Source: Spirochaetia bacterium (GTDB taxonomy: Bacteria > Spirochaetota > Spirochaetia > CADAEX01). Taken from it: 64,000 nt of DNA. Each line of letters opens with the position of its first letter. Positions within the stretch are counted from its first letter, which is position 1. This document shows positions 9,053 through 46,862 of this stretch, piece after piece. The notes under the pieces are model-generated. The model was not told the DNA's origin, searched no databases, and worked only from the letters and a program-made list of their open reading frames with translations. The stretch lies in contig CAXXHA010000008.1 in assembly GCA_963662265.2 (NCBI GenBank), positions 32,001 through 96,000 on the forward strand. Reading direction: 5' to 3'. Position numbers and translations under genes: made by a program.

Positions 9053-9877
9053 TTAATTCAGATTATATCCGAATTCTCTGGTTTTCATAATATTTTTCCA
9101 ATGTGCTTCTCTTCTAATTATTATTTCATCATCAGTAATTGACGATCTTACTTCAAGTATTGAAAATTGATAATTATTTGCATATTCAATTCCATTTTTT
9201 TCAATTACTTTTTTTAGATCAATATTATTTCCATGTCCATTTTTTGAATAATTTTTCCATCTATCCCAAAAAGCATTTTCCCCATATGCTGAACCAACAT
9301 ATAATTTTCCGTTTGTTTTATCAGTAATTAAATATACACCTTTTGTACTTGATAATGCACTTTTCCAAGATGCTTCTTCTTCATTAATTACTTCTTGTAA
9401 TTCTTCATAGTTCAATAATAAATTTTCATATCCGGGAAAGGGTTCAATTTTATACGGTTTTTCAAGTAATTCGCTAATTTCAAAATTATTGATGTGTTTT
9501 TCTAGTAATAGATATGAAGCTCGAAAATCTTTATTAAATTTAATTATTAGTCGACCAATTAAATCTTTTTGTAACTCTGTTAAATTTGTCTTATATGAAA
9601 AATATTCTTTTTCTTTTGATTTATCATATTTTTTAGTTACATCCAATTTTTCATAAATACCGCCGTAGATCCAATAATTTGGTTTATAATAAATAAGTGA
9701 TATAATATATTTTCTTTCAAAATTTTTATTATTCTGATATTCTTGCCATTCTTTGAATTCATTTCTTATTAATTTATATAATGGTTCTTTTTTATTTAAT
9801 CGACCTATAGCCATGTGGAGTTTGTATTCATCGGTTTTTTCTATTATTTCTGGGAAAATATGTTCGAATTTAACCAT
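9053..9877 (-). CDS. GIY-YIG nuclease family protein (copy 1)
   Basis: GVYLITD..GKLYVGSAYG...RW..Y, FSILE, RE..WK. Confidence 0.9.
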   Translation of the reverse strand: MVKFEHIFPEIIEKTDEYKLHMAIGRLNKKEPLYKLIRNEFKEWQEYQNNKNFERKYIISLIYYKPNYWIYGGIYEKLDVTKKYDKSKEKEYFSYKTNLTELQKDLIGRLIIKFNKDFRASYLLLEKHINNFEISELLEKPYKIEPFPGYENLLLNYEELQEVINEEEASWKSALSSTKGVYLITDKTNGKLYVGSAYGENAFWDRWKNYSKNGHGNNIDLKKVIEKNGIEYANNYQFSILEVRSSITDDEIIIRREAHWKNIMKTREFGYNLN

Positions 9878-12679: not shown

Positions 12680-12737
12680 ATTTATTTTCCTATTATTTTA
12701 TTATTTCAACACACATTAAATAATTTTTATTAACACA

Positions 12738-12922
12738 TAACGCCAAGTTGAGCTGCACCGGTATGCCTGAGCGAAGCGAAGGATTGGCATGTGTTTTTGC
12801 TTAATTTCTCTGCTTTAAAAACAGATCTGGAAGTAGTAAATAATTGCTGCAATTTTCGATAATTCTACTTTTTTTCCTGCAAAAAACATGACAAAACCGG
12901 GGTCTGCTCCAACTTTTTGTTA
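12738..12922 (-). repeat. attC, long type
   Basis: Same as 29749 and 39527 copies. Confidence 0.9.
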
Positions 12923-13276
12923 TATTCTAAATTCTCTTTTGTTTTTTTAACAACGCCAAAATAGTTCAAGTATCCAGACTTTCACAATTATATCATAAAC
13001 CTTTACGTGTTTCACTTTCAGAAACAAAAGGCCATTATTTTCTTCCTGCGCGGGCTCAGCGTGGGGAGTTGGCCCCATTTCCACGAATCGCGTGGGCAAT
13101 TATCGCCAAACTTCACCACCCTCTATCCCTGCCAGGGTCGTGGAAATGTCTACCCTAGATTGGACTGTCAGGGATCGCCAGGTAGCCAGGACACCAATAA
13201 TCCGGTCTGAACCAATTCCATCCAACTTTTCCCAAATTCAGCTACGTTTTACAGCTCCTCAAATTTTGGTGGAATA
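12923..13276. other. Gene-less cassette body, family B
   Basis: No credible ORF; apparently identical copies at 29934 and 39712; stems such as CATTTCCACGA/TCGTGGAAATG. Confidence 0.88.
12987..13015 (-). promoter_or_regulatory. Extended -10 promoter in family B cassette
   Basis: Minus strand GTGAAA-N17-TATAAT with TG at the extended position (TGATATAAT); TGATATAAT conserved in all five B copies. Confidence 0.65.
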
Positions 13277-13464
13277 TAACGCCAAGTTGAGCTGCTCCGG
13301 CGGTGCCTGAGCGAAGCGAAGGATTGGCATGTGTTTTTGCATTTATACTTTGCTGTTAGAAAAATATGTAAAATAAGTGTTTTTTAGCTGCATATTTTTA
13401 ATAATTCTACTTTTTTTCCTGCAAAAACCATGTCAAAGCCGGGGTCTGCTCCAACTTATTGTTA
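13277..13464 (-). repeat. attC, long type
   Basis: Same as 38937 copy. Confidence 0.9.
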
Positions 13465-13866
13465 CATTCTAAATCCTCGTAAGATCAATTAGCAAGTTCT
13501 TTTTATCCATTTTTTAACCCAAATATATCCTGCAGATCTTAATTATTTTGCATTTTTTATGCAGGGAGTATACCAAAACATAATCCTTGGATAACCGTCA
13601 CAATATTTTTTCGGCTCGCTCTTTTTCGGCTGAAAAGCGCTTAGCTGTTTTTTCATTAAACAGTTATATCTTTTATTTTCGATTGTAAAAGGCTGTCCAC
13701 ACAAAACTATACTCTAACCTCTTTTTGAATCTGGATTGAATCAAAACAAAATCGCTTTTCTGCCGAGAGGGTCTCAAGATGATGCATACAATCCTAAAAA
13801 TATCTTTTTTATCACTTCTACCACAATATCGCCAGTTTTTACTGTTTCCAATAACTTTTGTGTATG
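13465..13866. other. Gene-less cassette body, family A
   Basis: No credible ORF; copy at 39125-39526. Confidence 0.87.
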
Positions 13867-13971
13867 TAACGCCAAGTTGAGCTGCTTCGCAGTACCAAAA
13901 AGACATACTTCTTTGCAGCTGAAATAATCCTGAAAGTAAAAAGTCGCGAAGTCTGCTCCAACTTATTGTTA
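13867..13971 (-). repeat. attC, intermediate type
   Basis: CTTCGC/GCGAAG inner stem. Confidence 0.88.
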
Positions 13972-14332
13972 TATTCGAAATTCTTTTTCAGTTTTCAAAA
14001 CAACACCAAAATAGATCAAGGATCAGGATTCTTCCAATTATATCATAATCCTATACGCGGTTCACTTACCGAAACAAATGGCCAGTTTTTTTCTTCCGGG
14101 TGGGCGAATGCAGGGCCGAGTTGGCCATTCCATTTCCACAAATCGCGCAGGCATTTATCGCCCAACTTCACAACCCTCTATCCCTGCCAGGCCTTGTGGA
14201 TATGTCTACCCAAGCTTGGACTGTCAGGGATCGCCAGGCAGCCAGGACACCAATATTCCGGTTTGAACCAACTTTATCCACTTTTTCCAGAATTCAGCTA
14301 CGTTTTACAGCTCCCCAAATTTTGGTGGAATA
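13972..14332. other. Gene-less cassette body, family B (allele 2)
   Basis: Diverged homolog of 12923-13276. Confidence 0.87.
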
Positions 14333-14432
14333 TAACGCCCAGTTGAGCTGTTTGACTGTCCCGCAGGGTTGGCACGTGTTCTTGCTCTGCAAGAACCGTG
14401 ACAAAAGTCAAATCTGCTCCAACTTTTTGTTA
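14333..14432 (-). repeat. attC
   Basis: Conserved arms. Confidence 0.92.
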
Positions 14433-14436
14433 TGTT

Positions 14437-15244
14437 CTAAAATTCTATACCCAATTGTATTATTTCATCAATTAATTCTATTTTCTTAATGTCAGTTTCT
14501 GTATTTTCCAGGAGACTAATACCTATTATTTTCTTTTGATTTTTTACTTCTTTGATTATTTCTATAACTTCTTCTATTTTCAAACCATTTTTACTCGGAC
14601 ATTTTACATTTTTATATATTGCTGGATCTAAAACATCTAAATCTATATGTATATAAACATATTCATTTTTATTATTTAATAATTCTGAAATATTTAAATT
14701 ATTTTTAATTTTTATATTTTCTTTAATAATGAATTCTTCTTCCGGTTTATCTAAATCTCTCGTACCTATTAATACAACGTCTTGCGGATTAATCTTATTG
14801 AATTTATATGAAATATCATTATTTGGTATTTCTTCGAGTAAAAATCTCAAAGACATACCATGAATATTTTTACTTGGAGAACTTTCAGGCGTATTTAAAT
14901 CTCCATGTGCATCAAACCATAATACATCTAACGTTTTATATTTATCTGAAAAATATGATACTATTGGGATTTCAATTCCACATCCCCCACCAACAGTAAG
15001 AATTTTATCTGGTTTTTCTTCATGTAATTTTTGAGATATTTTATTTAATTGGTTTTTTAATTGTTCTATAACCAAGAATATTTTTTTCTTTCAATAATTC
15101 AATATTCTGAGATATTTCAATTCTTTCAAAAACAACATTTGAATTTTCAATATATTCTTTTAAGGCACAAGCTCCACCATATAATTCTTTTAAAGCTCCT
15201 GAGACTTGCCATTGTGGAACAAATAGATTTAATTTTTTATTCAT
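14437..15244 (-). pseudogene. Arginase-family protein, frameshifted near 15070 (or assembly indel)
   Basis: N-term PQWQ in one frame; GGGC, WFDAHGDLNTP, HGM and HIDLDVLDP in the next. Confidence 0.75.
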
Positions 15245-15679: not shown

Positions 15680-15866
15680 TAACACCAAGTTGAGCTGCTC
15701 CGGTGTGCCTGAGCGAAGCGAAGGATTGGCATGTGTTTTTGCATTCTTTTCTTTGCTTTAAAGTAAAAACTGTAAGTTTCAAGTAACTGCTGTAATTCTT
15801 TTTTATTTCTACTTTTTTCCTGCAAAAAACCATGACAAAACCGGGGTCTGCTCCAACTTTTTGTTA
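15680..15866 (-). repeat. attC, long type
   Basis: Conserved arms with an AT-rich insert. Confidence 0.9.
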
Positions 15867-16300
15867 TATTCTAAATCCTCGCAATGTCAAATAGCAAGTT
15901 CTTTTTCCCCATTTTCCAACCCGAAGATATCATACAGATCTTCAATATTTCTATTCAAAACTGCCAGGCGATCATTTCGGCAGGGCTCACCGCCCAGACT
16001 TTTGCACCCCAATCGTTCGGCGATCCTCGGTAATGATCAAGCCCGTAAATTCCTACCCTATATTGGATGGCATCGGCGCTGGCCATTTCGCCAAAAAGAA
16101 GATCAATAATCCAATTGCTTTTCATAAATGAAGCAATAAGTGCGAAATGCCCCCGCCCAAAATTTCTTTCCCTAAATTGGCAGGCTCTGGAGGATGGCGG
16201 GCCTCAAAATGCTGCAAGCCATTTCCCAAAAATCCTTAATTTTTTAAGCGTTTACCAGTTTATTGGCAGTTTTTAAGGTTTCCGCTAACTTGTGTGAATA
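15867..16300. other. Gene-less cassette body, family C
   Basis: Homologous to 37684 and 45044; multiple stems. Confidence 0.87.
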
Positions 16301-21626: not shown

Positions 21627-22452
21627 TTAATTCATATTATATCCAAATTCTCGCGTTTTCATAATATTTTTCCAATGTGCTTCTCTTCGAATTATAATTT
21701 CATCATCAGTAATTGATGATCTTACTTCAAGAATTGAAAATTGATAATTATTTGCATATTCAATTCCTTTTTTTTCAATTACTTTTTTTAGATCAATATT
21801 ATTTCCATGTCCATTTTTTTGAGTAATTTTTCCATCTATCCCAAAAAGCATTTTCCCCATATGCTGAACCAACATATAATTTACCGTTTGTTTTATCAGT
21901 AATTAAATATACACCTTTTGTACTTGATAATGCACTTTTCCAAGATGCTTCTTCTTCATTAATTACTTCTTGTAATTCTTCATAGTTCAATAATAAATTT
22001 TCATATCCGGGAAAGGGTTCAATTTTATACGGTTTTTCAAGTAATTCGCTAATTTCAAAATTATTGATGTGTTTTTCTAACAATAGATATGAAGCACGAA
22101 AATCTTTATTAAATTTAATTATTAGTCGACCAATTAAATCTTTTTGTAATTCTGTTAAAATAGTCTTATATGAAAAATATTCTTTTTCTTTCGATTTATC
22201 ATATTTTTTAGTTACATCCAATTTTTCATAAATACCACCGTAGATCCAATAATTCGGTTTATAATAAATAAGCGATATAATATATTTTCTTTCAAAATTT
22301 TTATTATTCTGATATTCTTGCCATTCTTTAAATTCATTTCTAATTAATTTATATAATGGTTCTTTTTTATTAAATCGACCTATAGCCATATGGAGTTTGC
22401 ATTCATCGGCTTTATTAATTATTTCTGGGAAAATATTTTCGAATTTAATCAT
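21627..22452 (-). pseudogene. GIY-YIG nuclease, diverged allele, frameshifted in a homopolymer
   Basis: Near-identical to 9053-9877; T7 instead of T6 at ~21814-21820. Confidence 0.8.
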
Positions 22453-23881: not shown

Positions 23882-23937
23882 AATATACTCAATATTTAAA
23901 ATATTATTAGCGTTTAACGCTATTTACAATGTAGATA

Positions 23938-24037
23938 TAACACCCAGTTGAGCTGTTTGTCTGTCCCGAAGGGTTGGCGCGTGTTCTTGCTCTGCAAGAA
24001 CCGTGACAAAAGACAAATCTGCTCCAACTTTTTGTTA
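23938..24037 (-). repeat. attC
   Basis: Same as 32996 copy. Confidence 0.92.
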
Positions 24038-24301
24038 CACGATTTATTCTTCAATATTTGAATATATAGTATAAATAATCATTCTTAAGTAATCCCTGAT
24101 ATATTATGTAAATAATTTTAAGCCTGGATAACACATCCCCAACCATTATATTCTACATCAAATAATTTACTAATACATACAAATAAAGCTGAAATTGAAC
24201 ATAATATATTTTGTTGAATAGGCATATCAATAAAAACATTTAATTGGCATTCCCCCAAAACTGTAGACACTTGATATACTTAGAAACTAAGGAGTATTAA
24301 A

Positions 24302-27384: not shown

Positions 27385-27575
27385 TAACGCCCAGTTGAGC
27401 TGCTCCGGTGTGCCTGAAGCGAAGCTGAAGGATTGGCATGTCTTTTTGCATTTATATGTTTGCTTTTAAAACATCAACTTAAGGATTCAAATAACTGCTA
27501 CAATTTTTTTTATAACTCTTACTTTTTCTATGCAAAAAGCATGACTAAACCGGGGTCTGCTCCAACTGATTGTTA
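27385..27575 (-). repeat. attC, long type
   Basis: Near-identical to 40066 copy. Confidence 0.9.
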
Positions 27576-27948
27576 TATTCTAAACCCTCGCAAGGTCAAT
27601 TAGCAAGGCAAGATTTATCTCTTAACGACCCGCCTATACGCAGTTGCTCTTTCAATAATTCGAAACAAAACAGCCAGGAGATCATTTCCTGACAGGCCAT
27701 ACCTCCCCAATTTTTTTGACCCTAACTCGAGGGGCATATCTTGGAAATGATCAAGCCCAAGATTTTACTATTCATGAGTGGGCAGGCATTGTCAGGCCCA
27801 TTTCACACCCCAGATTTTCTTTCCCTAATGGTCGGCTGCGCAGGATGAAGGGGCTTAAGACGCTGCAAACAATCCCCAAAAAAATCTTTTTCAAACTGTT
27901 TACCCGTTTATTGAGTGTTTTAATGGTTTCCACTAACTTTTGTGAATA
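27576..27948. other. Gene-less cassette body, family D
   Basis: No credible ORF; copy at 40256; stem GATCATTTCC/GGAAATGATC shared with family C. Confidence 0.87.
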
Positions 27949-29748: not shown

Positions 29749-29933
29749 TAACGCCAAGTTGAGCTGCACCGGTATGCCTGAGCGAAGCGAAGGATTGGCA
29801 TGTGTTTTTGCTTAATTTCTCTGCTTTAAAAACAGATCTGGAAGTAGTAAATAATTGCTGCAATTTTCGATAATTCTACTTTTTTTCCTGCAAAAAACAT
29901 GACAAAACCGGGGTCTGCTCCAACTTTTTGTTA
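29749..29933 (-). repeat. attC, long type
   Basis: Same as 12738 copy. Confidence 0.9.
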
Positions 29934-30287
29934 TATTCTAAATTCTCTTTTGTTTTTTTAACAACGCCAAAATAGTTCAAGTATCCAGACTTTCACAATT
30001 ATATCATAAACCTTTACGTGTTTCACTTTCAGAAACAAAAGGCCATTATTTTCTTCCTGCGCGGGCTCAGCGTGGGGAGTTGGCCCCATTTCCACGAATC
30101 GCGTGGGCAATTATCGCCAAACTTCACCACCCTCTATCCCTGCCAGGGTCGTGGAAATGTCTACCCTAGATTGGACTGTCAGGGATCGCCAGGTAGCCAG
30201 GACACCAATAATCCGGTCTGAACCAATTCCATCCAACTTTTCCCAAATTCAGCTACGTTTTACAGCTCCTCAAATTTTGGTGGAATA
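29934..30287. other. Gene-less cassette body, family B
   Basis: Copy of 12923-13276. Confidence 0.88.
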
Positions 30288-30389
30288 TAACGCCAAGTTG
30301 AGCTGTTTGACTGCCCCGCCAGGGTTGGCGCGTGTTCTTGCAACAGCAAGAACCGTGACAAAAGTCAAATCTGCTCCAACTTATTGTTA
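30288..30389 (-). repeat. attC
   Basis: Same as 8933 copy. Confidence 0.92.
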
Positions 30390-30407: not shown

Positions 30408-31232
30408 TTAATTCAGATTATATCCGAATTCTCTGGTTTTCATAATATTTTTCCAATGTGCTTCTCTTCTAATTATTATTTCATCATCAGTAATTGACGA
30501 TCTTACTTCAAGTATTGAAAATTGATAATTATTTGCATATTCAATTCCATTTTTTTCAATTACTTTTTTTAGATCAATATTATTTCCATGTCCATTTTTT
30601 GAATAATTTTTCCATCTATCCCAAAAAGCATTTTCCCCATATGCTGAACCAACATATAATTTTCCGTTTGTTTTATCAGTAATTAAATATACACCTTTTG
30701 TACTTGATAATGCACTTTTCCAAGATGCTTCTTCTTCATTAATTACTTCTTGTAATTCTTCATAGTTCAATAATAAATTTTCATATCCGGGAAAGGGTTC
30801 AATTTTATACGGTTTTTCAAGTAATTCGCTAATTTCAAAATTATTGATGTGTTTTTCTAGTAATAGATATGAAGCTCGAAAATCTTTATTAAATTTAATT
30901 ATTAGTCGACCAATTAAATCTTTTTGTAACTCTGTTAAATTTGTCTTATATGAAAAATATTCTTTTTCTTTTGATTTATCATATTTTTTAGTTACATCCA
31001 ATTTTTCATAAATACCGCCGTAGATCCAATAATTTGGTTTATAATAAATAAGTGATATAATATATTTTCTTTCAAAATTTTTATTATTCTGATATTCTTG
31101 CCATTCTTTGAATTCATTTCTTATTAATTTATATAATGGTTCTTTTTTATTTAATCGACCTATAGCCATGTGGAGTTTGTATTCATCGGTTTTTTCTATT
31201 ATTTCTGGGAAAATATGTTCGAATTTAACCAT
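30408..31232 (-). CDS. GIY-YIG nuclease family protein (copy 2)
   Basis: Protein identical to 9053-9877. Confidence 0.9.
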   Translation of the reverse strand: MVKFEHIFPEIIEKTDEYKLHMAIGRLNKKEPLYKLIRNEFKEWQEYQNNKNFERKYIISLIYYKPNYWIYGGIYEKLDVTKKYDKSKEKEYFSYKTNLTELQKDLIGRLIIKFNKDFRASYLLLEKHINNFEISELLEKPYKIEPFPGYENLLLNYEELQEVINEEEASWKSALSSTKGVYLITDKTNGKLYVGSAYGENAFWDRWKNYSKNGHGNNIDLKKVIEKNGIEYANNYQFSILEVRSSITDDEIIIRREAHWKNIMKTREFGYNLN

Positions 31233-32895: not shown

Positions 32896-32995
32896 ACTTT
32901 TTCCTAAATATTTTAATTATTGATAATATTATAATTGTACACCCAAATATTAAAATCAGACAGATAAAGTTATATGTTACTAAATATTTACAATA

Positions 32996-33095
32996 TAACA
33001 CCCAGTTGAGCTGTTTGTCTGTCCCGAAGGGTTGGCGCGTGTTCTTGCTCTGCAAGAACCGTGACAAAAGACAAATCTGCTCCAACTTTTTGTTA
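32996..33095 (-). repeat. attC
   Basis: Conserved arms. Confidence 0.92.
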
Positions 33096-33175
33096 CACGA
33101 TTTATTCTTCAATATTTGAATATATAGTATAAATAATCATTCTTAAGTAATCCCTGATATATTATGTAAATAATT

Positions 33176-33517
33176 TTAAGCCTGGATAACACATCCCCAA
33201 CCATTATATTCTACATCAAATAATTTACTAATACATACAAATAAAGCTGAAATTGAACATAATATATTTTGTTGAATAAGCATATCAATAAAAACATTTA
33301 ATCTATAATCATTTTCATCAATATACTGTATTTCCGTTTTCCCATAATTATTATCTGTAATAAAATCTGCTACAATATTTAGTTTATCATTATCCTCAGA
33401 AGAAAATGTAAAATCTACAGTTCTTGATTTATTAAAATCATCTCCTTTTTTATCCAAGCTAAATAGAGTTTTTGTATCTTCCTCTGATATTTCTAATAAT
33501 TCTTCAACTAATTTCAT
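33176..33517 (-). CDS. RraB-like (ribonuclease E inhibitor-like) protein
   Basis: L...GDD....R.VDF.F ... Y.GWGC pattern. Confidence 0.7.
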   Translation of the reverse strand: MKLVEELLEISEEDTKTLFSLDKKGDDFNKSRTVDFTFSSEDNDKLNIVADFITDNNYGKTEIQYIDENDYRLNVFIDMLIQQNILCSISALFVCISKLFDVEYNGWGCVIQA

Positions 33518-37496: not shown

Positions 37497-37683
37497 TAAC
37501 ACCAAGTTGAGCTGCACCGGTGGTTCCTGAGCGAAGCGAAGGATTGGCATGTGTTTTTGCATTCATTTCTTTGCTTTGAAAGCAAATCTGGAAGTAGTAA
37601 ATAACTGCTGCAATTCTTTTATAATTCTACTTTTTTCCTGCAAAAACCATGACAAAACCGGGGTCTGCTCCAACTTTTTGTTA
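37497..37683 (-). repeat. attC, long type
   Basis: Conserved arms with an AT-rich insert. Confidence 0.9.
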
Positions 37684-38118
37684 TATTCTAAATCCTCGCA
37701 AGGTCAAATGGCAAGTTCTTTTTCCCCATTTTCCAACCCGAAGATATTCTGCAGATCTTCAATATTTCTATTCAGAACTGCCAGGCGATCATTTCGGCAG
37801 GGCTCACCGCCCAGACTTTTGCACCCCAATCGTTCGGCGATCCTCGGAAATAATCAAGCCCTTAAATTCCTACCCTATATTGGACGGCATCGGCGCTGGC
37901 CATTTCGCCAAAAAGAAGATCAAGAAAACAAACGCTTTTCAAAATTGAAAGCAATATGTGCGAAATGCACCCGCCCAAAATTTCTTTCCCTAAATTGGCA
38001 GGCTCTGGAGGATGGCGGGCCTCAAAATGCTGCAAGCCATTTCCCAAAAAATCCTTAATTTTTATACGTCTACCAGTTTATTGGCAGTTTTTACGGTTTC
38101 CGCTAACTTGTGTGAATA
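37684..38118. other. Gene-less cassette body, family C
   Basis: Allele of 15867 and 45044. Confidence 0.87.
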
Positions 38119-38231
38119 TAACGGCCGCATGACCTGCAAACCTGGCCTGAGGTAATCCGAAGGATTGGCGCGGTTCTTGCCTGAGCAAGAATCCGTGCCA
38201 AAAAGGTTTGACTGGTCAATGCGATTTGTTA
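38119..38231 (-). repeat. attC, divergent type
   Basis: TAAC..CGCATGACC/GGTCAATGCG..GTTA. Confidence 0.82.
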
Positions 38232-38936: not shown

Positions 38937-39124
38937 TAACGCCAAGTTGAGCTGCTCCGGCGGTGCCTGAGCGAAGCGAAGGATTGGCATGTGTTTTTGC
39001 ATTTATACTTTGCTGTTAGAAAAATATGTAAAATAAGTGTTTTTTAGCTGCATATTTTTAATAATTCTACTTTTTTTCCTGCAAAAACCATGTCAAAGCC
39101 GGGGTCTGCTCCAACTTATTGTTA
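38937..39124 (-). repeat. attC, long type
   Basis: Same as 13277 copy. Confidence 0.9.
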
Positions 39125-39526: not shown

Positions 39527-39711
39527 TAACGCCAAGTTGAGCTGCACCGGTATGCCTGAGCGAAGCGAAGGATTGGCATGTGTTTTTGCTTAATTTCTCT
39601 GCTTTAAAAACAGATCTGGAAGTAGTAAATAATTGCTGCAATTTTCGATAATTCTACTTTTTTTCCTGCAAAAAACATGACAAAACCGGGGTCTGCTCCA
39701 ACTTTTTGTTA
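39527..39711 (-). repeat. attC, long type
   Basis: Same as 12738 copy. Confidence 0.9.
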
Positions 39712-40065
39712 TATTCTAAATTCTCTTTTGTTTTTTTAACAACGCCAAAATAGTTCAAGTATCCAGACTTTCACAATTATATCATAAACCTTTACGTGTT
39801 TCACTTTCAGAAACAAAAGGCCATTATTTTCTTCCTGCGCGGGCTCAGCGTGGGGAGTTGGCCCCATTTCCACGAATCGCGTGGGCAATTATCGCCAAAC
39901 TTCACCACCCTCTATCCCTGCCAGGGTCGTGGAAATGTCTACCCTAGATTGGACTGTCAGGGATCGCCAGGTAGCCAGGACACCAATAATCCGGTCTGAA
40001 CCAATTCCATCCAACTTTTCCCAAATTCAGCTACGTTTTACAGCTCCTCAAATTTTGGTGGAATA
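39712..40065. other. Gene-less cassette body, family B
   Basis: Copy of 12923-13276. Confidence 0.88.
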
Positions 40066-40255
40066 TAACGCCCAGTTGAGCTGCTCCGGTGTGCCTGAAG
40101 CGAAGCTGAAGGATTGGCATGTCTTTTTGCATTTATATGTTTGCTTTTAAAACATCAACTTAAGGATTCAAATAACTGCTACAATTTTTTTTATAACTCT
40201 ACTTTTTCTATGCAAAAAGCATGACTAAACCGGGGTCTGCTCCAACTGATTGTTA
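40066..40255 (-). repeat. attC, long type
   Basis: Near-identical to 27385 copy. Confidence 0.9.
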
Positions 40256-40628
40256 TATTCTAAACCCTCGCAAGGTCAATTAGCAAGGCAAGATTTATCT
40301 CTTAACGACCCGCCTATACGCAGTTGCTCTTTCAATAATTCGAAACAAAACAGCCAGGAGATCATTTCCTGACAGGCCATACCTCCCCAATTTTTTTGAC
40401 CCTAACTCGAGGGGCATATCTTGGAAATGATCAAGCCCAAGATTTTACTATTCATGAGTGGGCAGGCATTGTCAGGCCCATTTCACACCCCAGATTTTCT
40501 TTCCCTAATGGTCGGCTGCGCAGGATGAAGGGGCTTAAGACGCTGCAAACAATCCCCAAAAAAATCTTTTTCAAACTGTTTACCCGTTTATTGAGTGTTT
40601 TAATGGTTTCCACTAACTTTTGTGAATA
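40256..40628. other. Gene-less cassette body, family D
   Basis: Copy of 27576-27948. Confidence 0.87.
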
Positions 40629-41742: not shown

Positions 41743-41848
41743 TAACGCCAAGTTGAGCAGCTTAGCAATCACTGTAAAACATACTTCTTTGCTGCTTGAA
41801 ATAATCCTGAAAGTAAAAAGTCGCGAAGTCTGTTCAAACTTTTTGTTA
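41743..41848 (-). repeat. attC, intermediate type
   Basis: Arms with some mismatches. Confidence 0.85.
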
Positions 41849-42204
41849 TATTCGAAATTCTTTTTCAGTTTTCAAAACAACACCAAAATAGATCAAGGAT
41901 CAAGATCTTCCCAATTATATCATAATCCTTCACGCGGCTCACTTCCCGAATCAAAAGGCCAGTATTTTCTTCCTGCGTGGGCCCAGCGTGGGCCGAGTTG
42001 GCTCCATTTCCACGAATCGCGTGGGCAATTATTTCCCTACTTCACCGCCCTCAATCCCTGCCAGGCCGTGGAAATGTCTACCCAAGATTGGACTGTCAGG
42101 GATCGCCAGGCAGCCAGGACATCATTAATCCGGTCTGAACCAACATCATCCACTTTTTCCAGAATTCAGCTACGTTTTACAGCTCCCCAAATTTTGGTGG
42201 AATA
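41849..42204. other. Gene-less cassette body, family B (allele 3)
   Basis: Homolog of 13972 and 12923. Confidence 0.87.
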
Positions 42205-42274
42205 TAACGCCTAATTGAGTTGCGCCCTCGCAGGAGCGCAGCGACGAGAAGGCGTCAACTCCAATTTTTTGTTA
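42205..42274 (-). repeat. attC, short type
   Basis: Short-type arms. Confidence 0.9.
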
Positions 42275-44857: not shown

Positions 44858-45043
44858 TAACACCAAGTTGAGCTGCTCCGGTGGTTCCTGAGCGAAGCGA
44901 AGGATTGGCATGTGTTTTTGCATTCTTTTCTTTGCTGTAAAACAAATCTGGAAGTAGTAAATAACTGCTACAATTCTTTTATAATTCTACTTTTTTTCTG
45001 CAAAAACCATGACAAAACCGGGGTCTGCTCCAACTTTTTGTTA
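44858..45043 (-). repeat. attC, long type (first cassette)
   Basis: Conserved arms with an AT-rich insert. Confidence 0.9.
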
Positions 45044-45478
45044 TATTCTAAATCCTCGCAAGGTCAAATGGCAAGTTCTTTTTCCCCATTTTCCAACCCG
45101 AAGATAAACTGCAGATCTTCAATATTTCTATTCAGAACTGCCAGGCGATCATTTCGGCAGGGCTCACCGCCCAGACTTTTGCACCCAAATCGTTCGGCGA
45201 TCCTCGGAAATGATCAAGCCCGTAAATTCCTACCCTATATTGGACGGCATCGGCGCTGGCCATTTCGCCAAAAAGAAGATCAATAATCCAATTGCTTTTC
45301 GAAAATGAAGCAATATGTGCGAAATGCCCCCGCCCAAAATTTCTTTCCCTAAATTGGCAGGCTCTGGAGGATGGCGGGCCTCAATATGCTGCAAGCCATT
45401 TCCCAAAAAATCCTTAATTATTTAAGCGGTTACCAGTTTATTGGCAGTTTTTACGGTTTCCGCTAACTTGTGTGAATA
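45044..45478. other. Gene-less cassette body, family C (first position at attI)
   Basis: Allele of 15867 and 37684; not followed by another attC. Confidence 0.87.
45045..45074 (-). promoter_or_regulatory. Putative downstream-facing promoter at the 3' end of the gene-less cassette
   Basis: TTGCCA-N18-TAGAAT; same geometry in families A, B (allele 1), C and D. Confidence 0.55.
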
Positions 45479-45500
45479 TAACATTACATATTCAATACTT
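45476..45500 (-). other. Putative attI recombination site (crossover G|TT at 45482/45481)
   Basis: Last GTTATAT core before intI; attC-like sequence stops here; minus strand GAATATGTAATGTTATATTC. Confidence 0.75.
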
Positions 45501-45641: not shown

Positions 45642-46862
45642 ATGACATTAGAGGATTTTTTGATCAACAAAAGCAAAGTAAAAGAACAGCATGTTTTTTA
45701 CTACCTGAAATGGATTTCTGAATATCAGAGTTTCAAATTACATAATAGTGATTCAGATTTAAATGATTTTCTGTTAAATTTGAGCAAAAGATTTGAGTCC
45801 TGGCAGGTTAACCAGGCACAGAAAGCTGTAAACTTATACAAATATTACAACAATACTTATGCAGAAATTAAGCCTGAAATAATTCATCCACCCGATGACT
45901 GGGATAAAGCGATAACTAAAGCAAAAGAGCTATGCAGGTTTCAGTATAAATCGTTAAGCACTGAAAAATCCTATATTTACTGGATAAAATCATTTCAGAA
46001 ATACCTTTCTGGTAAGATTCCGGTTGATGTCAACGAATCAGATGTAAAAAATTTCCTGACATACCTTGCTGTTCAGAAAGGTATCGCCGATTCTACTCAG
46101 AAACAGGCTTTTATTGCACTGCTTTATCTGTTTAGAAATGTTTTAAACAAGGAAATATCAGACCTCAACAATGTTATTCGCTCATCGCAATATAAAAAAC
46201 TCCCCGTAGTTCTCTCAAAAGATGAAGTTGCCCTGGTTATCAGTAAAATGAAAGGAATATACAGAATAATGGCAGAAATTATCTACGGAGGCGGCTTGCG
46301 ACTTTCAGAATGCCTGTCACTGAGGATCAGGGATCTGGATTTTCAGAGGCAGTGTATAGTTGTGCATTCAGGAAAAGGAAACAAGGACAGACTTACTCTC
46401 CTTCCCGAATCTATTGTTCCTAAGTTGCAGAATCACCTGATCATTGTAAGAAAGAAGCATGATAAAGACAGGAGAGAAAAAGTTGAAGGTGTTCCACTTC
46501 CTGATGCGCTGGAAAAAAAGTACAAAAATGCCTGCCTTGAATGGGGCTGGTACTGGGTCTTTCCCTCTGATAAATTATCTTTCGACCCGAGAGAAAAAAT
46601 TATCAGAAGATATCATATATATCCGACAACGCTGCAGAAATCCTTTCATGATGCTGTTGTTCAGTCTGAAATAGCAAAAAATGCATCTATTCACACATTA
46701 CGCCATAGTTTTGCAACCCATTTAATAGAAAACGGTTATGATGTCAGGACAGTACAGGAGCTTCTGGGACATTCAGACATAAGAACAACAATGATTTATA
46801 CACACATTGCGCAAAAGAATAAACTGGGGGTTGTCAGTCCTTTCGATGATCTGAAATTGTAA
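45642..46862 (+). CDS. intI: Integron integrase
   Basis: R (GLRLSE), K (GKGNKDR), HTLRHSFATH, LLGH, TTMIYTH; IntI-specific insert VPLPDALEKKY..EWGWYWVFPS; GGAGG RBS. Confidence 0.96.
   Translation: MTLEDFLINKSKVKEQHVFYYLKWISEYQSFKLHNSDSDLNDFLLNLSKRFESWQVNQAQKAVNLYKYYNNTYAEIKPEIIHPPDDWDKAITKAKELCRFQYKSLSTEKSYIYWIKSFQKYLSGKIPVDVNESDVKNFLTYLAVQKGIADSTQKQAFIALLYLFRNVLNKEISDLNNVIRSSQYKKLPVVLSKDEVALVISKMKGIYRIMAEIIYGGGLRLSECLSLRIRDLDFQRQCIVVHSGKGNKDRLTLLPESIVPKLQNHLIIVRKKHDKDRREKVEGVPLPDALEKKYKNACLEWGWYWVFPSDKLSFDPREKIIRRYHIYPTTLQKSFHDAVVQSEIAKNASIHTLRHSFATHLIENGYDVRTVQELLGHSDIRTTMIYTHIAQKNKLGVVSPFDDLKL

Follow-up and report, generated by a model that had tools for sequence, protein, structure and literature searches.

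What might a cassette without a gene do when it recurs five times in one integron array, and does it act as DNA or as RNA, and on which strand? The question is raised by a stretch of 64,000 nucleotides (nt) from a Spirochaetia bacterium (contig CAXXHA010000008.1, positions 32,001 to 96,000; hereafter the window), which comprises most of a large sedentary chromosomal integron. The cassette in question, which we refer to as Family B, has a gene-less body of 357 nt and is present in five copies representing three alleles. The first-pass annotation of the window had proposed that selection acts on a folded plus-strand molecule, either an RNA antisense to the array or the bottom strand of attC, the recombination site of the cassettes, as single-stranded DNA (ssDNA). 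A wider alignment, in which the main stem covaries, upholds the part of this proposal that concerns a selected single-stranded fold but leaves the specificity for the plus strand unsupported. Judging from the comparisons described below, Family B is probably a gene-less cassette of the regulatory or promoter type whose hairpin is under selection in single-stranded form.

The Family B alleles and their main sequence features are as follows, with positions given in window coordinates.

12741-13279, minus strand: Family B allele 1 cassette, 539 nt, composed of attC (12741-12922, 182 nt) and body (12923-13279); bounds from attC motifs
13076-13086 and 13138-13148, no strand assigned: arms of the allele 1 hairpin module, with 51 nt between them; identified by inverted repeat and cross-family covariation
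13160-13182, no strand assigned: longest invariant Family B block, 23 nt, the most conserved part in the allele comparison
13870-14335, minus strand: Family B allele 2 cassette, composed of attC (13870-13971, 102 nt) and body; hairpin arms at 14131-14141 and 14194-14204
41746-42207, minus strand: Family B allele 3 cassette, with an attC of 103 nt; hairpin arms at 42005-42014 and 42067-42076, 10 bp

The 539-nt allele 1 cassette is letter-identical at 12741-13279, 29752-30290, and 39530-40068 and has different neighbors each time. The diverged alleles at 13870-14335 and 41746-42207 have 83 to 87% identity and a different attC, of 102 to 103 nt. Family B copies are flanked on both sides by attC sites with complementary R boxes and lie in a single orientation in an array beside the integrase gene intI, as integron cassettes do; the occurrence of the same cassette in different array contexts marks it as mobile.

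The main stem lies exactly where the first-pass annotation had placed it, with CATTTCCACGA (13076-13086) facing TCGTGGAAATG (13138-13148) in allele 1 and CATTTCCACAA (14131-14141) facing TTGTGGATATG (14194-14204) in allele 2. The compensatory change from G-C to A-T reported between these alleles is real and affects the tenth pair. The allele 2 stem also has a T-T mismatch at its fourth pair, which had been missed, while the homolog on a metagenome contig, L008, has a perfect 11-bp version with A-T, and the allele 3 stem (42005-42014 and 42067-42076) retains 10 bp. Of 1000 shuffled versions of the body with dinucleotides preserved, 12 contained a perfect inverted repeat of at least 11 bp with a loop of 3 to 120 nt. 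Among contigs of DNA runs, the changes 13085 G>A and 13139 C>T were always found together (both in X6 and X8, neither in X4 and X17).

Three further stems had been proposed for Family B. Allele 1 does contain their complementary words, slightly offset in position (AGATTGGA begins at 13157 and TTCCATC at 13216), but the stems are not kept between alleles. Allele 2 adds a mismatch and a third wobble to the AGATTGGA/TCCGGTCT stem, the GGGCTCAGC/GTTGGCCC stem has just 5 Watson-Crick pairs even in allele 1, and only 3 Watson-Crick pairs of TTCCATC/GGTGGAA are left in alleles 2 and 3. When the aligned bodies were folded by thirds, only the hairpin third folded better than column-shuffled alignments (plus strand, z score of -3.71, reached by 0 of 60 shuffles; minus strand, -2.49, reached by 2 of 60). 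Neither the left nor the right third gave a folding signal against column-shuffled alignments on either strand, with z scores from -0.53 to +1.20.

The same stem was found beyond Family B. A Family B profile detected weak relatives (E value of 3e-4) in the integron arrays of G002, a genome of the same genus (as is G001; the present genome is G000). Clustering of short cassettes gave three groups: B; A, C, and D, with 9 copies here and 1 in G001; and E and F, with 10 copies in G002. Families A, B, D, E, and F have a perfect inverted repeat of 8 to 13 bp with a common core, ATTTC/GAAAT, and with 47 to 53 nt between the arms (54 to 62 nt between the cores). There is one such module per cassette in B, D, and the scored copies of family A, and there are two in tandem in E and F. 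The modules and arms are as follows.

Family B arm: CATTTCCACGA
16084-16149, also 37901-37967 and 45261-45326, no strand assigned: family A hairpin, CATTTCGC/GCGAAATG, a homologous module
27680-27752, also 40360-40432, no strand assigned: family D hairpin, GATCATTTCC/GGAAATGATC, a homologous module
Families E and F, arm of the first module: ACATTTCCAT
Families E and F, arm of the second module: GATTTCCACAAT(T)

Because the same stem occurs in families A, D, E, and F, the module is broader than Family B. It appears to be a selected element with a wider range than the first-pass annotation could see, and Family B appears to be one branch of a genus-restricted gene-less group consisting of A, B, and D here and of E and F in G002.

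The only departure from an invariant ATTTC/GAAAT core is a single mismatch in allele 2. Five contiguous positions of the stem next to the core show compensatory swaps: C-G and G-C both occur at the first outer pair, and the inner pairs are C-G or G-C, A-T or C-G, C-G or T-A, and G-C or A-T. In an alignment of 11 modules, 84.1% of the cells were paired compared with 73.2% in shuffles (0 of 500 reached the observed value), and both sides had changed in 6 of 14 pairs (3 of 500 shuffles), the sixth of these, at the outer edge, being formed in just 3 of 11 modules. The covariation that the first-pass annotation had expected of a larger alignment is present, with a score of 0.205 compared with 0.056 in shuffles (0 of 500 reached it) and at most 0.057 in slid controls. 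The 110 filled cells of the closing stem comprise 105 Watson-Crick pairs, one G-T pair (on the plus strand, in family D), and four unpaired positions. Compensatory changes beyond those of the controls were confined to the closing stem. The rest of the body had no covariation support, and the covariation terms in the consensus folds for B and for E/F were unfavorable (positive) on both strands. Likewise, the interiors of the 11 modules (54 to 62 nt between the cores) showed no significant fold on either strand (z scores from -1.86 to +0.35).

The arms thus appear to be kept complementary by selection or, failing that, by some process that depends on their pairing. Since the pairing is maintained, the element would act when the strand is single, as RNA or ssDNA. 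A different explanation places the inverted repeat at the level of DNA, without a function for the single strand: template switching or gene conversion would keep its arms alike, or they would be half-sites for a DNA-binding protein about six helical turns apart. The almost purely Watson-Crick closing stem, with its one G-T pair, is what arm-to-arm copying predicts, the invariant core is reminiscent of a recognition word, and the spacing between the arms is tight. Yet a protein site predicts conservation, and the core-flanking positions vary between families while staying complementary. Arm copying, for its part, itself requires an ssDNA hairpin to form, and the persistence of the module in at least five diverged families and two genomes is hard to account for without selection. 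We regard the DNA-level explanation as decidedly unlikely.

Integron arrays were the only places where the module was found. The matches to a covariance model, 10 in this genome and 24 in G002, all fell within integron arrays and all had the orientation of the array; under Infernal's stricter filters the model found nothing in the other 59 of 61 genomes. In G002 there are two separate arrays (C1:931457-947113 and 2800988-2824852), with E/F cassettes in both and 24 modules in total. A pattern search of this genome and G002 gave 15 listed matches that pair beyond the six-base words, all of them in arrays, besides 104 further matches outside that list. Chance matches to the pattern also occur outside the window at G000:C32:115771-115989, where three tandem 65-nt units, 77 nt apart, contain an internal inverted repeat; this could be an array like those of clustered regularly interspaced short palindromic repeats (CRISPR) or another tandem array. 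Gene-less family C (13465-13869) lacks the ATTTC/GAAAT hairpin, and both ends of its body are common to families A and D. Family C has a terminator-like hairpin followed by a T run on the plus strand (13627-13647) and a 78% identical homolog in G001 (L043/L026).

Family B itself has a narrow distribution. Its own 3.77-Mb assembly contains only the 5 copies, and the only real homolog outside it is on metagenome contig L008, which is near-identical to allele 2 and flanked by attC. Four loci matched in the metagenome contigs, and the three besides L008 share just 19 to 21 nt. Family B was not found in 60 relatives (two matches of 20 to 21 nt only, with E values of about 1e-3) or in 400 genomes of the phylum (a single 24-nt match). 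There were no matches to two exact Family B words of 20 to 21 nt in contigs of species-representative genomes and no Family B matches in viral contigs. Contigs of four DNA runs contained only the three known allele lineages. A BLAST search of the body against the whole genome for trans targets gave, outside the array, perfect words of 13 to 15 nt and one 18-nt match with a mismatch, all with E values of at least 1.

Could Family B encode a protein? It might be a decayed or small coding cassette, expressing either the 126-amino-acid (aa) plus-strand open reading frame (ORF) of allele 2 or minus-strand ORFs of 38 to 50 aa. The open allele 2 frame, the calling of a 96% identical 148-aa protein in a public assembly, and two minus-strand ORFs of 41 and 50 aa that abut in all alleles at TAA followed by TTG or ATG would fit such a reading. 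The substitution pattern does not. The 71 substitutions among Family B alleles lack three-base periodicity, and in the best minus- and plus-strand frames the changes fall, by our reading of the alignments, mainly at codon positions 1 and 2. Because the alleles differ by insertions or deletions (indels) of 1, 2, and 3 nt at two places, no frame is common to them on either strand, and L008 differs from allele 2 by two additional 1-nt deletions. The allele 2 ORF has no Pfam match and belongs to no protein family; among 5.77 billion proteins it matches a single one, a copy with 96% identity in another assembly. Moreover, the pyrimidine-rich composition of the plus strand is by itself a reason for long stop-free frames, which are found in family A bodies too (82 to 169 aa). 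Six-frame translation, periodicity, Pfam, and the protein database led us to reject the coding readings, and a coding Family B seems extremely improbable. On these comparisons, its body is that of a non-coding, gene-less (ORF-less) cassette.

Long plus-strand ORFs of 126, 169, and 124 aa cross gene-less cassettes into attC (13966-14346 on the plus strand, 37500-38121, and 44912-45286, respectively); they look like by-products of the pyrimidine-rich strand. The matching 148-aa protein called in the public assembly, P0001, is probably an annotation artifact. Family E is also non-coding, since its alleles differ by many single-base indels. We considered a small hydrophobic plus-strand ORF in family F that resembles a type I toxin and rejected it, as it has a stop inside the second module and the 1-nt indels in family E break the frame.

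On which strand, then, would the hairpin act? The orientation of the array was read from the integrase gene, the cassette ORFs, and the attC sites.

45642-46862, plus strand: intI, integron integrase, a tyrosine recombinase (Pfam Phage_integrase PF00589, 2.1e-38; Phage_int_SAM_4 PF13495, 1.1e-18, an integron-type N-terminal SAM-like domain)

Transcription of intI is directed away from the array, and the attC array ends at about 45500. A 44-nt repeat forming the 5' part of attC occurs 32 times below intI, and a looser motif gave at least 38 attC boundaries in the window and 51 on the whole contig. Coding cassettes have their ORFs on the minus strand with attC downstream, an example being the arginase-family ORF at 14437-15075. 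Given the direction of intI and the orientation of the cassette ORFs, the minus strand is the cassette sense strand. The extra bases of attC, as read from the sequence, are on the 5' arm of the minus strand. In the canonical attC geometry the extra bases lie on the R''-L'' arm of the top strand, which identifies the plus strand with the recombinogenic bottom strand. The strand labels of the first-pass annotation were thus right.

The folding-energy asymmetry that it had expected between the strands is not established: none is apparent when sequences are folded singly, as RNA or as DNA, or in the consensus stem. The consensus closing stem has energies of -9.24 on the plus strand and -8.98 on the minus strand (z scores of about -20 each). 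For the whole body, z scores were -1.83 (plus) and -0.57 (minus) with RNA parameters and -2.03 (plus) and -2.13 (minus) with DNA parameters, and for the hairpin region of alleles 1, 2, and 3 they were -1.46, -2.09, and -1.53 (plus) and -1.45, -2.68, and -1.67 (minus). Shuffling of alignments gave z scores on the plus and minus strands, respectively, of -2.06 and -1.43 for the B body, -3.71 and -2.49 for the B hairpin, -0.53 and +1.20 for the right third, and -4.10 and -2.44 for family E. This lean to the plus strand is consistent but weak, with gaps of about 1 to 1.5 standard deviations, and the minus-strand scores are diluted because shuffles of the G+U-rich minus strand themselves fold well.

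These values bear on the possibility that the functional molecule is the plus strand, as an RNA antisense to the array or as an ssDNA attC bottom strand that is continuous with the plus strand of the body. The identity of the plus strand with the attC bottom strand, the lower plus-strand scores in every alignment shuffle, and the RNA score of the whole body are in keeping with it. In addition, in the stems noted earlier together with a stem between the body ends (12954-12962/13263-13271), 4 to 5 transitions keep a G-T pair on the plus strand compared with one on the minus strand. Against it, the only comparatively supported helix is close to strand neutral, with one G-T in the 110 filled cells and equal energies, and folds with DNA parameters are symmetric. 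The isolated hairpin region is symmetric or leans to the minus strand, and the interior lacks a significant fold on either strand in all 11 modules. The stems that depend on G-T pairs were picked on the plus strand and are thus ascertained for it, and they decay between alleles. The minimum-energy fold of the allele 1 plus strand skips the 11-bp stem in favor of a local CCACG/CGTGG hairpin; the promoter scan gave no plus-strand promoter-like site within the body; and, as noted above, the covariation terms of the consensus folds of B and E/F are positive on both strands. We consider a specifically plus-strand molecule rather unlikely. More generally, because the stem is palindromic and almost purely Watson-Crick, neither the strand nor the kind of molecule can be distinguished from sequence. 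According to an earlier report, ssDNA and RNA motifs are hard to distinguish by sequence (PMC5737381).

The body ends can pair as CACCAAAAT/ATTTTGGTG (12954-12962 and 13263-13271; 9 bp, with one G-T in allele 1), and the R-box words flanking the body, GTTATATTC / GAATATAAC (12919-12927 and 13271-13279), are also complementary. Such end-to-end pairing of the body would join the two flanking attC sites on one strand.

A regulatory role of Family B was suggested by promoter-like sites on the sense strand.

12987-13015, minus strand: extended -10 promoter-like site, GTGAAA-17-TATAAT with TG (GTGAAA-17-TGaTATAAT), 10 of 12 matches in an in silico scan; faces attC and the next cassette
12924-12953, minus strand: second promoter-like site, TTGTTA-18-TAGAAT, abutting attC; scan, allele 1

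The word ATTATATCA is present in all five Family B copies, and the minus-strand block TTATGATATAATTG is invariant across the alleles. Families A, C, and D have TTGCTA-18-TAGAAT at the place corresponding to the second site, which is not retained in Family B alleles 2 and 3. A promoter-like site with at least 9 of 12 matches lies in the last 75 nt of 16 of 21 short bodies compared with 23 of 72 longer ones. Twelve of these 21, of which 11 are in G000 and one is in G001, have TTGNNA-18-TAG(A/T)AT at one fixed place abutting attC. It is on this positional conservation, not on scan counts, that the promoter assignment rests. In reporter assays, gene-less cassettes of Vibrio and oral Treponema carry mostly sense promoters, according to two studies (PMC11014356; PMC6557892).

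In the mechanism that we favor, a closing stem of 8 to 13 bp around ATTTC/GAAAT would enclose 47 to 53 nt without a conserved fold, and the predicted sense extended -10 site would drive transcription through attC into the next cassette. The cassette would be regulatory by virtue of this predicted promoter. The hairpin lies 60 to 130 nt upstream of the predicted start and, because of this position, would be transcribed solely by sense read-through or in an antisense transcript. Its effect may be on transcripts that read through it, by way of processing, stabilization, or insulation, for instance. Alternatively, it might be an antisense RNA whose loop is long and pyrimidine-rich, or an ssDNA fold that influences how the flanking attC sites recombine.

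Several observations weigh against a promoter-type cassette with a selected hairpin. The promoter scan was not enriched over shuffles, either here (7 sites found compared with 4.7 ± 2.2 expected) or in the G002 cassettes (21 compared with 15.8 ± 4.3); promoter-like matches are frequent in DNA as AT-rich as this. By our reading, the extended -10 site is absent from families E and F. A section heading of one report states that promoters of gene-less cassettes are unidentifiable in silico (PMC11014356). Since the hairpin is upstream of the predicted start, the promoter leaves it unexplained, and the lean of the alignment shuffles to the plus strand is easier to reconcile with an antisense or bottom-strand role than with a sense RNA. 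The compensatory swap within Family B is one evolutionary event, and template switching or arm-to-arm gene conversion can keep an inverted repeat complementary without functional selection.

The other cassettes of the array provide context for Family B. Short gene-less cassettes occupy 11 of 37 intervals in the window; they are 462 to 622 nt long and have no minus-strand ORF of more than 66 aa, and the attI-proximal cassette is of the same kind. Nine of the 11 have long attC sites of 182 to 188 nt (examples are 12741-12922, 13280-13464, 15683-15866, 27388-27575, 37500-37683, 38940-39124, and 40069-40255), compared with 90 to 102 nt in coding cassettes, the surplus being about 80 nt of AT-rich sequence inserted in the terminal loop. 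Family B bodies are found with both attC types, and body and attC have therefore been re-assorted. The first cassette, adjacent to attI (44861-45500), is a member of gene-less family A with its hairpin at 45261-45326; it would have been the last to integrate, and it puts a promoter-like cassette next to intI and Pc. Several coding cassettes, too, have duplicates in the array with 98 to 100% identity (9240-9539, 21815-22114, and 30595-30894 match one another, as do 23935-24234 and 32993-33292), which indicates recent cassette shuffling or duplication. One of the duplicated coding cassettes carries an ORF with a GIY-YIG domain.

We compared Family B and its module with known systems. No family in Rfam 15 matched at its gathering score anywhere in the window; with the threshold relaxed to E values of up to 10, the best match within 12700-14400 reached 20.4 bits compared with a gathering score of 92. 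An IS605-orfB-II match in the neighboring family C cassette was rejected, its 19.9 bits being far below the gathering score of 88. A resemblance of the hairpin-loop word TATCGCCAAACTT to the attC 5' arm, TAACGCCAAGTT, was dropped as too short.

Like attC sites, the module is an imperfect or long-loop hairpin on the strand continuous with the attC bottom strand and is found in integron arrays only. Unlike them, it has a core, ATTTC/GAAAT, that differs from the R and L boxes of the attC sites in this array. We rejected the idea that the module is itself an attC site: R boxes, with their ...AAC / GTT... ends, are missing from it, its arms (CATTTCC.../...GGAAATG) lie inside the body, and 0 of 34 matches are at a cassette boundary. 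An intrinsic terminator was rejected too, given the long loop (51 nt between the allele 1 arms), the lack of a T or U run on either strand, and a scan that reported none. Repetitive extragenic palindromic (REP) elements resemble the module in being palindromes repeated in non-coding DNA. The tetranucleotide GTAG is a feature of REP elements, and a minus-strand GTAG precedes the hairpin in B, E2, and F2. In contrast to REP elements and terminators, which have a few bases between their arms, the module has 47 to 53 nt, and, unlike REP elements, it is confined to cassettes instead of being dispersed in the genome.

The closest functional parallels are the promoter cassettes of Vibrionaceae (Blanco et al. 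2024, PMC11014356) and of oral Treponema (Tansirichaiya et al. 2019, PMC6557892). As described in these reports, such cassettes are likewise short and ORF-less, have a normal attC, are frequent in large arrays, and carry a sigma-70-like site directed toward the downstream cassette, and a gene-less cassette comes first beside attI. They differ in that promoter activity was measured there, whereas the evidence here consists of an invariant motif and positional enrichment; there is also no sequence relation, and the present module is found in one genus only. The accessible portions of the two reports mention neither a conserved hairpin nor secondary structure of the cassette body, the terms "secondary structure" and "hairpin" having no occurrence in the text searched. 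A second parallel is sRNA-Xcc1 of Xanthomonas campestris, a small RNA that acts in trans and is encoded by an integron cassette (Chen et al. 2011, as cited in PMC8876359 and PMC6557892); it is a precedent for a gene-less cassette encoding a regulatory RNA. Family B has no Rfam match and no extended complementarity elsewhere in the genome. The literature searches turned up no description of a gene-less cassette whose body contains a conserved hairpin.

Gene-less cassettes, promoter cassettes, and one cassette-borne small RNA were already known, and what appears to be new is a conserved, covarying hairpin module that is common to several gene-less families and matches no Rfam family. For now its reach is limited to two genomes of one genus, one metagenome contig, and the contigs of a few DNA runs. 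The function of gene-less cassettes is an open question in integron biology, with only promoter activity and one small RNA shown so far, and the hairpin provides a defined, testable element that occurs in several diverged families, has compensatory pairing, and is found only inside integron arrays. A more speculative reading, which we hold to be doubtful, is that "selfish" or regulatory gene-less cassettes carry the module as a structure that works in cis, on the strand continuous with the attC bottom strand, as ssDNA or antisense RNA. As ssDNA, it would alter the folding or the readiness for pairing of the flanking attC sites and so make the cassettes unusually mobile, which would fit their multiple, letter-identical copies in several contexts and the presence of one in the attI-proximal slot. 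As an antisense RNA, it would damp the expression of array cassettes through its pyrimidine-rich loop of about 55 nt. Either form, if real, would constitute a new functional layer of integrons.

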